A DNA stretch of 64,000 nucleotides. Source: an uncultured Gemmatimonadales bacterium (GTDB lineage Bacteria; Gemmatimonadota; Gemmatimonadetes; Longimicrobiales; RSA9). The stretch's first letter is position 1, and each line of letters begins with the position of its first letter. Shown here piece after piece: positions 58,600 to 64,000 of this stretch. The notes below the pieces were generated by a model that did not search any database, had not been told where the DNA came from, and saw only the letters and a program-made list of their open reading frames with translations. A program made the translations under genes and the position numbers. The stretch lies in assembly GCA_963816355.1 (NCBI GenBank), contig CAWFKH010000001.1, positions 1 through 64,000 of the forward strand, written 5' to 3'.

Positions 58600-58826
58600 C
58601 GCTCGGCGAGGGGAAGCTCGCTGCGCGAGGGGAGCCGGCTTCGCCGGGGAAGCTCGCCGGGCGAGGGAAGCCGGCTTCGCCGGGGACCTGCTTCGCAGGG
58701 GAAGCTCGCTGCGCGAGGGAAGCCGGCTTCGCCGGGGGGCCTGCTTCGCAGGGGAAGCTCGCTGCGCGAGGGAAGCCGGCTTCGCCGGGGGGCCTGCTTC
58801 GCAGGGGAAGCTCGCTGCGCGAGGGG
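58600..58826 (+). repeat. Array of GGAAG-linked GC hairpins with a 53-bp higher-order period
   Basis: CTCGC-TGC-GCGAG, CCGGC-TTC-GCCGG and CCTGC-TTC-GCAGG; GAAGCTCGC recurs at 58701, 58754 and 58807. Confidence 0.9.
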
Positions 58827-58984
58827 ACGGTACGGGCGCGCGCCCGCGCGTCGGCGCCTCCGGTCCCTGCTCCCGCGGGGGGCGTCCCGCCTTTCCGGCG
58901 CTCCGCCCCGGGGCGGCGTGGCCGCCACCGAACCGGCGCCCGCCCCGCCGCGGCACGCCGCCGGCCGGAAGATCCCATCCCTAC

Positions 58985-59020: not shown

Positions 59021-59170
59021 GATGGCGTGTCGTTCGCGGTGACGACCCGCCTCAACCGGAAAAGAGAATCAACCCGTTATCCTGTTCGGCTGTGCGACGT
59101 CAGCACCGCGGCCCCGGTGGGTCAGGCCCGGTCGCTCGACGGCCCCTCGCCTCTCCCCCGAGCGCGCCAG
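59021..59170 (+). ncRNA. Putative structured RNA, family unassigned
   Basis: Starts right after the promoter; 5' GGCGUGU can pair with 3' GCGCGCC; internal stems need G-U pairs on this strand; no credible ORF. Confidence 0.35.
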
Positions 59171-59361
59171 CACGCTTGCAGTGTACCACCCGGGTACGCC
59201 CAGTCCCGGACCAGTGCCGCGCGCGCGACCACAGTTATTTGAAACTATGGATTAGCCCCCTCGCTTGCGAGAGCGGAGCCACCAGCGGAGTCCTTCAGCG
59301 GAGCGCCGCAGCCCACCCTAGCGGATCCGGGCTGACGCAACCCGAAAGGAGGTGAGCTGAG

Positions 59362-59436
59362 TTGACGGCTTTCTTTGCCGCCCTTTTCGCTGGTTTCGCG
59401 AAGCTTCTTATGGCGGGTGTCACCATCATTCATTAA
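59362..59436 (+). CDS. 24-aa hydrophobic peptide MTAFFAALFAGFAKLLMAGVTIIH
   Basis: AAAGGAGGTGA Shine-Dalgarno at 59345-59355, TTG start 6 nt later, TAA stop. Confidence 0.65.
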   Translation: MTAFFAALFAGFAKLLMAGVTIIH

Positions 59437-59469
59437 GTGAGTGAGGGGGCTTTTCTTTCTTAAGACATC

Positions 59470-60805
59470 ATGCCAAAGAAGATCGCCCTACTCTTTGCTG
59501 CCGTAGTTGTCCTCGGCGCAGCATCGTTCTGGCCGTTGCCGCTTGCCGACATTGCGGCGCCTAAGCGGCACGGCGATGGGCGGCTTGTTGACGCTGACTG
59601 TCTTGGGGGTGCTGGCCGAGTTCCTTCCAGTTCAGTACAGTGTCGAAGGGCGCGAAGCGTCATCGTCCATCTCCTTCATCCCAATGTTCGTCATCGGACT
59701 GTCGTTCCATCCGACGACGACCGTATTGGCTACGGCGCTGATAATTGGGACAGCCTCTACGCTTGGCCATAAGCTCCCTGCTTGGAAGACGATATTCAAT
59801 GTTTGCCAAGTCGCTCTAGCTGTCCGCCTTGGTTCAGAGTTATACTATTATCTGTCCACTTCAACTCTGCCGATTCTACATTATGATGTAGTAGCACTTG
59901 CAGGTCTTTCGCTTACGTTCTTTATCACAAATACAGTACTCGTCTCCTTTTTCTATTCCATAGACCAATCGACTCCGTTTCTTCCAACGCTCAAACGAAT
60001 TGCCGGACCGGGTGGTTCCAATCTCTATTATGACCTTCTAGTTAGCCCTCTAGCTCTGCTCGTATCATACGTATATCGAAGCAGTGGCTTGAGTGGCGTA
60101 CTATTGTTAGTATTGCCACTTTACATCCTGCGCCATTCTTACGTCGCCATGCTGCAGCTCCAACAGGCGAATCGCGCCCTCCTGAAAGTATTGATCAAGG
60201 CCATTGACACGCGCGACCCTTATACGTCTGGTCATTCTCTCCGTGTATCACTCTTAGCCCGAGCGATAGCGGAGGACATGGGCGTTCGGGGGAGACGTCT
60301 CGATGATGTCGAGACGGCTGCTCTGTTGCACGACATTGGAAAGGTCGACGGAATATACGCGGAGTTGATTCGGAAGCCGCACGCTTTGTCCGCAGATGAA
60401 GTCAAAGTTATTCGAACACACGCGACAAAGGGAGCGGACTTCGTTGGCGGGCTAAGGACGTACAGCGACGGCATAGTTCTGAGTATCAGGCATCATCACG
60501 AAAAATATGATGGTTCAGGGTACCCAAATGGTCTTCGCGGCTCTGAGATCCCACTTGCGGCACGCATAATTCAGATTTCCGATAGCATTGACGCGATGCT
60601 TTCTGACAGGCCTTACCGATCTGCCCTGTCTCTTGAGCAGGTTCACACGGAGCTTAGGCGGTGCGCGGGAAGTCAGTTTGATCCAGGAATCGTGGACAAC
60701 ATGCTTGAGAGGGGATCCCTCACACGAATGCTGCCGACCCTCCGGCTTCATGGGGGCAAGACTGCAGCGGTTCTCCCGCGCATTGAAGCGTCAGCGGCTG
60801 TCTGA
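59470..60805 (+). CDS. Multi-pass membrane HD-GYP phosphodiesterase with an apparent frameshift near 59542
   Basis: TM N-terminus; DPYTSGHSLRV, LHDIGK, HHEKYDGSGYP, DSIDAM..RPYR; the first TM helix lies in a different frame. Confidence 0.85.
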
Positions 60806-60829: not shown

Positions 60830-61033
60830 GTGCAGACTAGACATTGTCCCTCCTGTGGCTCCGATCACTTGGAGCGCGCCACTTGCGGGCCGGCTGAGTT
60901 GCCGCTTGCGGACGGGAGTGCAATTCGCCTGCTAGTACTTGGATGCTTGAATTGTGGGCACGTTAGTCTATGGATCCCAGAGGCCGACGATGGAAGTGGC
61001 GCAAAGTCCTTGGGGAGTCAGTCATTCTTATAG
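60830..61033 (+). CDS. Small zinc-ribbon-like protein
   Basis: AGGAGG RBS; CPSC and CLNCG. Confidence 0.6.
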   Translation: MQTRHCPSCGSDHLERATCGPAELPLADGSAIRLLVLGCLNCGHVSLWIPEADDGSGAKSLGSQSFL

Positions 61034-61522
61034 GCCTAGCGCAGCAGTTGTCAATGTCCTAGAAGATACGCTATCTGCTGGTGGTAAGTGCTTACCCGCT
61101 CAGATTGAGTACTTCCCGTCGAGCCGCTCCGGGGGTCAACTAGCAGACAGTCTATAAGTACTTCATCCAAAGAAGAATAGACGGGTCCCCAAATGGTCGG
61201 CCCGAGCGCGGCTCGGTGCAGATCGATCGTCCGGCACGGCGTTCCTCCACGAGGATCCGGAGCCAGTGCTACTTCAGGGCGGACGTACAAGGTTGCGAGA
61301 CTTCGTCCGGTCGATGAAGCCGCGCCTTTATCCGCGGCGTGAGGGAGCGTGTCGAGACGCTTCCCGGACAGCAGACGAGATCGACGTCTCGACTTCAGCG
61401 GCTGCCGTTGCCGGGCGGTGAGACCGGAGCCGTTCGTGCGTTTTCCCTTTCTTGACAGGAGCCCCGGGAGGCGGGAGATTTGCAGACGCTGTCGCCCCTT
61501 GTTCCGACTGTCGAAATTGTAG

Positions 61523-61732
61523 ATGCCCACCGGCAAACGCCGCGTTGCGATCAACCTGCCTTACGGCGAATACGAGGAAATGGCCGCTATCGCGGACGAG
61601 CACAACGTCTCACTCGCGTGGCTAGGCGGCCAATTCATGGAACGCTACCGCGAGGAATCTTTGCAGCTTCCCCTTCCGCTTCGGACCAACAGAAGTTTAG
61701 AACGAGGACCGGGAGCACATGCCGCGCAGTGA
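61523..61732 (+). CDS. Ribbon-helix-helix (CopG-like) regulator
   Basis: RVAINL..EYEEM..IA..NVSLAW; overlaps the endonuclease start. Confidence 0.6.
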   Translation: MPTGKRRVAINLPYGEYEEMAAIADEHNVSLAWLGGQFMERYREESLQLPLPLRTNRSLERGPGAHAAQ

Positions 61733-63089
61733 TCTCCCCTTTGGCAGCGAGTTTTCGCCCGACCAGATTGATCTGGCCACGCTACTGGATCTCGCGCACC
61801 AGCACGGCGAGGACTGGAAAGGATTCGAGGCCGCCGTACGGGCGCGCTATTTCGAGAATTACAAGACGTCGGACTACAACAAGGACAAGCTCGCCAATAA
61901 CGCGAAGCTCTCGTTGCGCGCCTATGGCCTGATCGGCGCGAAGGATGCCACGCTGACGGAGGCCGGATTAGCTCTCCACGCTTTGCATCAGGATGAGAGG
62001 CTCCTGCTAGATGCGTTTGCCAAGCACATTTTAAAGCACTGCCAGGGTATGAACTTCGTGCAGTGCCTCCTCGATATGCAGGCGGCGGGCGAGAGGATCA
62101 CCCTCTTGAGCCTCCGCCGTGGTCTTGAGGAGCGGGGGCTTTCCGTGCCGCGCGGCGGGAAGCACATGAGCACGTTGCGGCTCTGGCTGGACCGGGCCGG
62201 TGTCATCGTAAGCGGCTACCGCGTGGATCAGGCCCGTCTCAACGATATCCTTGGCGTTAAAGTGGAGGAATTCGAGGCTCTGGCAAGCTTTTCGGGCGAG
62301 CAGAAAGCCTTTCTGAAGACGCTCGCGAACATGGAGGGTGGCCGGCCGCATCTGTCGAACGATATCGAGCGGCTTGCCACGGCGACCTACGGCATCACGT
62401 TCAACGAGAAGAACCTGCCCAAGCAGGTTTTGTATCCGCTGGAGAAGACGGGCTACATCGCGCTTGAACGCGGCACACAAGAGCCCGGGCGCGGCGCTAA
62501 GCCTTTTTTGGTGACGGCAACCGAGAAGCTCGATGCCGACCTGATTGCACCGCTCATTGCGCAGATGGAGCGCCAGATCCAGGCTGATATCCGGCCGCTG
62601 CTTCGCAAGCCGCTTTCAGAGATCTTGGAGGAGCTGACGGAGGAGGACGCGCACACACGCGGCCTTGCCCTCGAGGCTCTCGCCTTCAAGCTCATGAGGC
62701 TCGTCGACCTCACCTATGTCGCGACCCGTCTTCGAGGCAGCCAGACCGGAGGGGCGGAAGTCGATCTGATCTTTGAAGGCGCCCGTCTGGTGTTCTCCCG
62801 CTGGCAGATCCAATGCAAGAACACGCGGAGCGTGTCGCTGGACGATGTTGCCAAGGAAGTGGGGCTCACGCACTTCCTGAAAAGCAACGTGATCGTGATG
62901 GTCTCGACCGGGACGGTCGGCCCGGAGGCGCGCCGCTACGCCAACAAAATCATGCGGGACTCTAACCTGTGCATCGTCATGGTGGACGGTACCGACCTCG
63001 AGCTAATCGAGGAACGGCCGGCCGGAATTGTCGATGTCTTCAGCCGCGAGGCCCGTCATGCGATGGACCTAAAAAGGCTCGAACTATAA
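61719..63089 (+). CDS. Restriction endonuclease with C-terminal Mrr-like PD-(D/E)XK domain
   Basis: G.ALE..GGAEVDL..IQCKN; adjacent methyltransferase. Confidence 0.8.
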   Translation: MPRSDLPFGSEFSPDQIDLATLLDLAHQHGEDWKGFEAAVRARYFENYKTSDYNKDKLANNAKLSLRAYGLIGAKDATLTEAGLALHALHQDERLLLDAFAKHILKHCQGMNFVQCLLDMQAAGERITLLSLRRGLEERGLSVPRGGKHMSTLRLWLDRAGVIVSGYRVDQARLNDILGVKVEEFEALASFSGEQKAFLKTLANMEGGRPHLSNDIERLATATYGITFNEKNLPKQVLYPLEKTGYIALERGTQEPGRGAKPFLVTATEKLDADLIAPLIAQMERQIQADIRPLLRKPLSEILEELTEEDAHTRGLALEALAFKLMRLVDLTYVATRLRGSQTGGAEVDLIFEGARLVFSRWQIQCKNTRSVSLDDVAKEVGLTHFLKSNVIVMVSTGTVGPEARRYANKIMRDSNLCIVMVDGTDLELIEERPAGIVDVFSREARHAMDLKRLEL

Positions 63090-63105
63090 AGGGAAGGAAC
63101 AACGG

Positions 63106-64000
63106 ATGCCGCAGAACGGCGTGAACAGGGCTAAGCCGTTCCACACAACCGCGTTCGGGCGAATCATCTGCGGCGATAGCTTGCAGGCGCTGTCTGCCCG
63201 TGCAGAAGGCTCGGTTAATCTCATCATGACCAGCCCGCCCTTCGCGCTCGTGCGAAAGAAGGACTATGGAAACGTCGAAGCCAACCAGTATATAGACTGG
63301 TTTCGCCCGTTCGCGGGGGAGTTCAAGCGCGTCCTCACCAATAATGGCAGCCTCGTTATTGACATCGGCGGGTCCTGGAAGAGGGGCTATCCGACCCGAA
63401 ACCTGTATCACTTCAAGCTGCTTGTTATGTTGTGCGAGGAGTTCGGGTTTCATCTTGCGCAGGATTTCTACTGGTGGAATCCGTCAAAGCTCCCGACGCC
63501 AGCAGAGTGGGTAAATATCCGCCGCATCCGGGTTAAGGATGCGATCAACACAATCTGGTGGTTATCGAAAACGCCTTGGCCGAAGGCCAGCAACCGGCGA
63601 GTCCTACAGCCTTACAGCGACAGTATGCAGGATCTTCTCGAAAGAGGCTATAAGGCGAAGAAGCGCCCATCCGGGCACGACATCAGTGAGAAATTTAGCA
63701 TCAACAATGGAGCGGCGATCCCGCCCAACCTGATCGCCATACCCAACACGGAAAGCAACAGCTTTTATCTGCGCTACTGTGAGGAGAACGGCCTAAAGCC
63801 CCACCCAGCGCGGTTTCCAACGGATCTACCAGAGTATTTCATTCGGATGCTGACAGACCCGGGCGACTTGGTCGTGGATCCGTTCGCAGGAAGTTGCGTC
63901 ACCGGCGAAGTGTCGGAGCGCCTTCAGAGAGAGTGGGAGTGCATTGAGCTTCTGCCGGCGTATTGCGAGGCTGCCCTTGGACGTTTTATTCGCCCTGCCG
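63106..64000 (+). CDS. Site-specific DNA methyltransferase, beta class, probably N4-cytosine (partial)
   Basis: Translated by hand: GDSL..TSPPFALVRKKDYGN ... HPARFP ... VDPFAGS; SPPF precedes FxGxG as in M.PvuII; no stop before the window end. Confidence 0.9.
   Translation, partial: MPQNGVNRAKPFHTTAFGRIICGDSLQALSARAEGSVNLIMTSPPFALVRKKDYGNVEANQYIDWFRPFAGEFKRVLTNNGSLVIDIGGSWKRGYPTRNLYHFKLLVMLCEEFGFHLAQDFYWWNPSKLPTPAEWVNIRRIRVKDAINTIWWLSKTPWPKASNRRVLQPYSDSMQDLLERGYKAKKRPSGHDISEKFSINNGAAIPPNLIAIPNTESNSFYLRYCEENGLKPHPARFPTDLPEYFIRMLTDPGDLVVDPFAGSCVTGEVSERLQREWECIELLPAYCEAALGRFIRPA

Follow-up and report, generated by a model that had tools for sequence, protein, structure and literature searches.

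In the agr system (AgrD/AgrC) a hypervariable block spans the peptide together with the sensor-encoding 5' portion of the receptor (PMC3673130). In SHP/Rgg and ComS/ComR the signal is cut from a short precursor: XIP comprises 7 residues of a 17-residue precursor (PMC13361665). In C. difficile, c-di-GMP class I riboswitches control small membrane proteins, and MASE is not mentioned in the available part of that account (PMC13724677). Proteins that join MASE9 to HD-GYP are on record from T. maritima (TM1467) and S. venezuelae (HdgA) (10.1101/2021.11.05.467447, PMC6205966), of which HdgA showed no phenotype (PMC6205966). The study defining MASE9 considers its ligand to bind within the membrane; its main text – supplements may show gene neighbourhoods – names no ligand and uses the terms 'peptide' and 'small protein' 0 times (10.1101/2021.11.05.467447). 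Neither an upstream peptide nor a leader RNA is mentioned in the available parts of the papers on MASE9-HD-GYP proteins (10.1101/2021.11.05.467447, PMC6205966). The available part of a review lists direct receptors within c-di-GMP networks for two molecules of quorum sensing, BDSF and AI-2, and for no peptide (PMC8846402).

In the window (the whole stretch of 64,000 nt analysed here) a MASE9-HD-GYP gene is preceded by an unannotated gene of 24 codons, which lies within a conserved leader RNA (Table 1). The small open reading frame (sORF) follows the Shine-Dalgarno (SD) sequence AAAGGAGGTGA, starts with TTG at 59362 on the + strand and translates as MTAFFAALFAGFAKLLMAGVTIIH; its stop ends at 59436, and 33 nt separate it from an ATG at 59470. 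The original prediction had drawn attention to this long SD, the TTG start, the 24-residue product and the 33-nt gap, all of which are borne out by the letters of the sequence. The 11-nt SD occurs three times in the 3.85-Mb genome, the other two occurrences being the anti-SD sites of rRNA on the opposite strand. The small gene is real: the evidence from its homologues is set out below.

Table 1. Positions of the module and of the adjoining island genes within the window
Feature	Position	Strand	Remark
Helix P1, 5' arm, C-rich	59254..59268	+	pairs with 59437-59451
Four AGCGGA repeats (at 59272, 59284, 59297 and 59320)	59272..59325	+	conserved leader RNA
Leader hairpin bearing the fourth repeat (TAGCGGA)	59308..59335	+	pairing judged by eye in individual sequences
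Shine-Dalgarno of the small gene	59345..59355	+	conserved in homologues
Small gene: 24 codons, hydrophobic helix, Gly, short tail	59362..59436	+	dN/dS 0.28; ORFs in homologues
Variable tail, where the hypervariable cassette begins	59422..59436	+	allele switch in run X1 and assembly breaks in relatives
Helix P1, 3' arm, G-rich, followed by a T-rich run	59437..59451	+	long-range pairing
Receptor codons 1-30, with the first membrane helix	59470..59560	+	frameshift near 59558-59561 cuts off the rest
Remainder of the receptor: MASE9 and HD-GYP	59561..60805	+	Pfam match 59723-60127; HD-GYP at about 60185-60688
Low-GC island genes outside the module: zinc-ribbon ORF, RHH-like ORF, Mrr_cat endonuclease, N4/N6 methylase	60830..64000	+	methylase extends to C1:64425

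If the sORF belongs with the receptor, then it should accompany related receptors elsewhere. HD-GYP loci were drawn from a GTDB scan, from the phylum to which the window belongs (Gemmatimonadota) and from the phylum of a Thermincola genome, loci with less than 340 nt of upstream sequence being excluded. Under a fixed rule (13-36 codons, an SD of at least 5 nt, a hydrophobic product and an end within 170 nt) an sORF is present at 92 of the 122 MASE9-type loci – so labelled by search origin or by helix count – compared with 1 of 55 other HD-GYP loci, although related loci in this comparison are not independent. Several failures of the rule are errors of start assignment, because clear ORFs are visible at those loci. 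In a sample from Actinomycetota, from which one locus of an unpublished genome was excluded, a looser rule finds the sORF at 21/26 MASE9-HD-GYP loci, and genes of this kind preceded by an sORF occur in at least three phyla. The association is not due to chance. A conserved upstream sORF, for which the original prediction had proposed to look, is what the homologues carry; their lacking it had been named as the outcome that would speak against the idea.

The sORF is absent from all six MASE9-GGDEF loci and from some MASE9-HD-GYP loci (those of Kribbella and Tepidibacillus, plus L136 and L140). Six further loci (L191, L199, L300, L308, L311 and L320) have a MASE9-HD-GYP gene and the leader repeats and no ORF that passes the rule; their starts or SD sequences may be atypical. 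In Bacillota, paired MASE9 genes lie 25-50 kb apart on one contig (G301:C7, G365:C6, G445:C36, G480:C1, G319:C11 and G309:C3): G301 has an HD-GYP gene with the peptide and a GAF-GGDEF gene without it, with flagellar genes beside each.

The homologous peptides are 14-35 residues long and consist of a hydrophobic helix followed by a Gly and, often, a terminal Trp. The Gly lies at -8 to -4 in 89/102 peptides, a Trp is among the last four residues in 73/102, and Cys is present in nine of the 102. No Pfam or NCBIfam family matches them, while an AgrD control peptide did match. The N-terminus is basic in 7 of 77 peptides from Gemmatimonadota, compared with 23 of 25 from elsewhere, and the low figure in the former means that a signal-peptide route is not general. 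One peptide (L102) carries a duplicated tail, GKILW being present twice. For 22 pairs picked by hand, dN/dS is approximately 0.28 and is equal for the peptide body and the tail; between the window and its close homologue L146 the 15 body codons show nine synonymous and three non-synonymous differences. These codon changes, which the original prediction had expected to reveal constraint, indicate that the small gene is under purifying selection, tail included. The module is present once in this genome, in which no second protein with the same C-terminal tail was found.

The receptor in the window scores above the cut-off for MASE9 (PF20972; 28.5 and 30.3 bits against 24.3) and matches HD_5 with 105.8 bits. 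All the motifs of an HD-GYP domain are present (GHSxRV, HDIGK, HHExxDGxGYP, DAMxxxRPY and GxQFDP), and the protein is a predicted c-di-GMP phosphodiesterase, hydrolysis being expected from its family. An intact HD-GYP domain, as originally claimed, is thus confirmed at the level of its motifs; the same claim of one multi-pass membrane protein does not hold for the sequence as it stands, since the ATG at 59470 and the HD-GYP ORF are in different frames: codons 1 to 30 (59470-59559) lie in one, and the remainder, from 59561, in the next. In the two closest homologues, L146 and L147, which are of the same family, the reading frame of the receptor is intact. The frameshift is either an assembly error or a real loss: comparison of relatives' proteins with this genome gave no frameshift-like event in 25 loci (about 20 kb), which are too few to gauge an error rate, and among the sequencing runs listed as containing the sequence none is of RNA and only the soil run X1 covers part of the stretch, with no reads over the frameshift. 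Both the frameshift and the structured RNA were overlooked in the first reading of the sequence.

A structural model of the intact homologue L146 (pLDDT 94.7) suggests what MASE9 might be. VIA-align of this model with 4hzu_S gave a Z of 14.5, which barely exceeds the tool's caution level for helical proteins, with an rmsd of 2.8 over 161 aligned residues, and the top 14 rows are all entries of ECF transporters. Foldseek likewise placed only ECF entries in its top ranks, with weak E-values (0.015 and above), and sequence identity between MASE9 and ECF S-components is 6-18%. The MASE9 domain is predicted to have the six-helix fold of an ECF S-component. Such components hold vitamin-sized ligands in an outward pocket, into which a tail of 4-6 residues might fit.

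A further set of observations concerns the boundary between what is conserved and what varies. A contig from run X1 (one contig of depth 5, translated by hand) is identical to the window over 282 nt (59142-59423) and then switches tail at codon 21, reading L-L-E-stop where the window reads I-I-H-stop: the length is equal, and the G-rich arm after the stop is different yet still able to pair. A search of 73 genomes of the family with a leader pattern gave 30 loci, of which 22 are left after removal of the window's own locus and seven chance matches without an ORF. Six of these 22 end, or enter an N-gap, inside the sORF – five of them at the pivot Gly or only a few codons away from it – and three more end within MASE9. 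At two loci (L252 and L258) a gap opens at the tail and closes at residues 194 and 213 of the receptor, where the HD-GYP part starts. Assuming a generous one break per 5 kb, 0.4 breaks inside the sORF are expected where six are observed (P approximately 2e-6). In a second family 2/25 loci break inside the sORF, neither of them at the tail, and two break inside the receptor. Coexisting alleles would explain the breaks; dropout of low-GC sequence or of G-runs is the alternative.

Within one genus, identity is 91-98% for leaders and 93-100% for peptide bodies, while the MASE9 protein is 68-79% identical between loci with different tails and 84-89% between loci with the same or nearly the same tail. 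Natural allele pairs differ by one to four residues of the tail, each with its matched sensor. The HD-GYP and MASE9 trees conflict, for groups that were selected after the identities were known. L270 and L273 (different tails) are sisters for HD-GYP (support 99/97), a pairing that the MASE9 tree rejects (p-AU 0.043). For L270 and L272, which have the same tail, the HD-GYP tree rejects a pairing (p-AU 0.008), and the MASE9 tree gives them only weak support as a group (48/0). Across 29 non-overlapping pairs, MASE9 identity and tail similarity are correlated once HD-GYP identity is controlled for (rho 0.55, p 0.002), whereas HD-GYP does not track the tail given MASE9 (rho -0.14). Peptide-receptor co-variation, also anticipated in the original prediction, is therefore found, with exceptions: L157 and L161 share a tail and have MASE9 at 56% and HD-GYP at 83% identity, and L118 and L127 differ in tail with little gap in MASE9. 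Linkage alone can yield part of the co-variation, because adjacent DNA travels together. Together these data show that the tail and MASE9 vary as one block between the conserved leader and peptide body on one side and the HD-GYP domain on the other.

The tail is probably an allele-specific ligand of the adjacent MASE9 that switches the breakdown of c-di-GMP. Because its last residues vary together with MASE9, the peptide is likely to be the strain-specific signal that the sensor has been missing; judged from sequence, it is best read as a ligand precursor or an intramembrane partner. The peptide would be targeted to the membrane, where its last 4-6 residues would serve as the ligand of MASE9, and binding would switch the fused HD-GYP domain, the predicted phosphodiesterase. 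The hydrophobic helix would place the tail on the membrane's outer face, and a housekeeping peptidase could then cut it free, or it could be displayed without leaving its anchor. The leader RNA would set the amount of peptide, probably by way of a protein that binds the AGCGGA repeats, and different tail-sensor pairs would act as strain-specific channels, like agr types. A wider proposal is possible, and we offer it tentatively: that these loci represent an undescribed class of peptide signalling in several phyla, with a precursor of 14-35 residues made from a structured RNA, a tail of 4-6 residues and a receptor of S-component fold that controls c-di-GMP directly; that tail-sensor alleles are swapped as a cassette and coexist in natural populations as kin-recognition types; and that the AGCGGA leader is a new class of regulatory RNA with its own binding protein.

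Co-variation would also arise if the whole peptide were a fixed membrane subunit or a cell-internal modulator of MASE9, with no signal passing between cells and with the tail co-evolving simply by touching the sensor. MgrB and SafA, which reportedly modulate PhoQ as small membrane proteins, provide the model. The window peptide has a 19-residue hydropathy of 2.0, as expected of a membrane subunit; the peptide body co-varies with MASE9 as well (rho 0.48, p 0.008, the same 29 pairs); and no processing or export gene is found nearby, there being no dedicated processing gene beside the window copy, and neither AgrB nor DUF5317 was found in the genome. Yet several tail-sensor alleles behind one and the same leader and body would be left unexplained by a fixed subunit, and the body is near-invariant where MASE9 has diverged by 30%. 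We consider this explanation unlikely.

The leader bears on a second alternative. At least two AGCG(G/A)A repeats are present in 96 of 105 leaders, compared with 10 of 3744 windows used as controls. This set was made by first setting aside 16 loci in which either the ORF call was not credible or the leader was unrelated; in the unfiltered set the figures are 99 of 122 MASE9-type loci and none of 55 controls. The arms of the long-range helix P1 – one approximately 90-160 nt before the sORF start and the other just past the stop – pair with a strength above the 95th percentile of controls in 86 of the 105 loci, and cognate arms outscore swapped arms in 69/69 and 22/22 loci. A weaker helix, in which the last repeat pairs with the spacer of the sORF's own SD, is found in 45/69 and 16/22 loci. 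The small hairpin in Table 1 was read by eye because RNAalifold gave no consensus pairs on the MAFFT alignment of leaders, and the window unit folds no better than shuffled sequences (z -1.18). In the window region Rfam 15 gives no hit at E<=1, nor does it on the leader at 14 other loci: the sORF lies in a conserved RNA of no Rfam family. The repeats are less general than the sORF, being absent from Streptosporangiaceae loci in which the sORF is present and occurring at least twice in only 11/26 loci from Actinomycetota. TRAP and CsrA, as candidate binders of the repeats, have no above-cut-off match in the genome; the leader patterns found nothing in JGI metagenomes or viral contigs, a looser class-wide pattern was uninformative, and promoter and terminator scans of the window remained at chance level. 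Elsewhere in the genome, from C5:26695 onward, there are 27 repeats containing AGCGGA with no MASE9 gene seen; the same factor may bind there, or this may be a simple repeat.

Given such a leader, the sORF might be a cis-acting element, its translation opening the long-range helix and freeing the start of the receptor while its product matters little. P1 encloses the sORF in nearly all loci; in Gemmatimonadota its 3' arm ends a median of 11 nt upstream of the start of the receptor, and an SD-like motif is missing from 34 of 64 receptors there. Coupling of this kind is weakened by two observations: an SD-like motif lies within the arm at only 17/64 loci of Gemmatimonadota and 1/18 other loci (it is not there in the window), and the start region of the window receptor is predicted to be unpaired (0.88). 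Moreover, coupling needs neither constraint on amino acids nor co-variation of tail and MASE9. As a complete explanation it is rather doubtful, but a cis-acting leader may operate alongside the tail as ligand.

Messenger RNAs of type I toxins are locked by pairing of their 5' and 3' ends, and the peptide might by analogy be a small membrane toxin, or bacteriocin-like, with MASE9 as a matched immunity protein or alarm sensor. The hydrophobic product of 14-35 residues, the strong SD, the end-to-end pairing together with the weak pairing over the SD spacer, and the matched variable pairs are all in keeping with this. We nevertheless regard it as very improbable: the module is single-copy here, with one motif copy in most relatives, the site is conserved behind the same upstream gene in 100/120 loci, and we know of no type I toxin paired with a sensor enzyme. 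It is equally improbable that MASE9 diversifies for other reasons (small-molecule ligands or phage pressure) and the adjacent tail merely hitch-hikes, for while the S-component fold normally binds vitamins or metals and MASE9 occurs on GGDEF proteins without a peptide gene, the tail is itself under purifying selection, keeps its Gly and Trp, and near-identical tails match similar MASE9 domains despite synonymous divergence (L271/L269: 88% identity in protein, 73% in DNA).

The gene upstream of the module in those 100 of 120 loci, in both phyla, encodes a protein of 224-244 residues without a Pfam family. In a structural model its C-terminal domain resembles the regulatory domain with which LeuA/CimA bind Leu/Ile (Z 9.5, rmsd 3.1, 109 aligned), and it is a candidate regulator of the leader; its N-terminus forms a small alpha/beta domain (L012:1905-2573 and homologues). 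The window copy and its two closest homologues do not have this gene in front, and homologues of the protein are encoded in the genome away from the module (C5:161068-161694, C3:391687-392445 and C3:416189-417172). This detachment bears on the original prediction that the module is a compact, horizontally moving unit. Relocation within the family is likely, because the window copy stands at the head of a low-GC island that includes a restriction-modification system, and another copy (L217) lies beside an integrase. Horizontal movement is nevertheless supported only in part: the closest homologues belong to the same family, low GC3, being widespread among the receptors (mean 0.63 in 72 homologues), is no proof of transfer, and in the island no integrase and no convincing end repeats were seen, nor a tRNA in the window. 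It is the tail with the MASE9 part that clearly varies as a block.

Some features of the surroundings are recorded here in their own right. The island lies between an ABC exporter and hut genes, and in it a small RHH-like gene precedes the Mrr_cat and N4/N6 methylase genes; on its left side, right after the stop of the ABC permease, are imperfect tandem repeats of about 30-40 nt (58600-58830). DUF5317 follows the module in 2/3 Bacillota loci examined (L225 and L227) and in none of five genomes of Gemmatimonadota. At four loci of Gemmatimonadota (L218, L221, L223 and L224) a gene for a large AAA_16/TPR regulator, with BTAD in L224, converges on the receptor, and at two of these a diguanylate cyclase fused to an iron-hydrogenase-like Fe-S domain lies upstream of the module (L223:5516-7315 and L224:5289-6992). 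A second peptide-to-HD-GYP arrangement exists in Bacillota, where a true AgrD-family peptide (L030:1674-1805; TIGR04223, 40.2 bits) lies 67 nt ahead of a gene for a five-helix membrane HD-GYP protein.

The module is undescribed in the literature searched, which consisted mostly of papers outside subscription. MASE9 is an orphan sensor, and the missing phenotype of HdgA is possibly due to an absent signal. If the tail is indeed the ligand of MASE9, then peptide signalling would be tied straight to c-di-GMP in Bacillota, Actinomycetota and Gemmatimonadota, a transporter fold would gain a role in signalling, and a new cis-regulatory RNA would be added. Loss of the receptor from some metagenome assemblies, which break at the tail, would explain why the arrangement has been a blind spot.

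Among the known systems, the module shares two features with agr: a short peptide gene adjoins a membrane sensor, and a hypervariable peptide-sensor block is present. In agr, however, the block takes in the whole peptide, whereas here it takes in only the tail; the output is a one-component HD-GYP domain rather than a histidine kinase; and the window peptide has no Cys for a thiolactone. The AgrD model (TIGR04223) left the window peptide and seven homologues unmatched while recovering the control (L030), and AgrB (PF04647) has no match in the genome, control genomes also falling below the cut-off. Membership of agr is rejected on two counts, the missing AgrD match and a receptor that is not a kinase. 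With SHP and ComS the module shares a short precursor with a C-terminal core, encoded beside its receptor, but those signals return to the cytoplasm by re-import and bind a TPR regulator there, whereas the candidate receptor here is a membrane domain fused to an enzyme. No adjacent cytoplasmic TPR receptor of the RRNPP type is present in the window island, and membership of this group is likewise rejected, although the anatomy would fit an exported and re-imported C-terminal core. The small proteins of C. difficile resemble the window peptide in having a structured leader, an association with the membrane and a tie to c-di-GMP; they differ in being outputs of riboswitches, whereas here the leader matches no Rfam family and the peptide gene goes with a single sensor enzyme. 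The described MASE9-HD-GYP proteins are matched by the window receptor in both domains, with MASE9 above cut-off, and differ from it in that the latter is frameshifted. Finally, the ECF S-components (FolT, BioY, RibU and ThiT; 4hzu_S) have a fold that MASE9 is predicted to share, with the difference that in MASE9 it is fused to a signalling domain and would have a peptide as its ligand.
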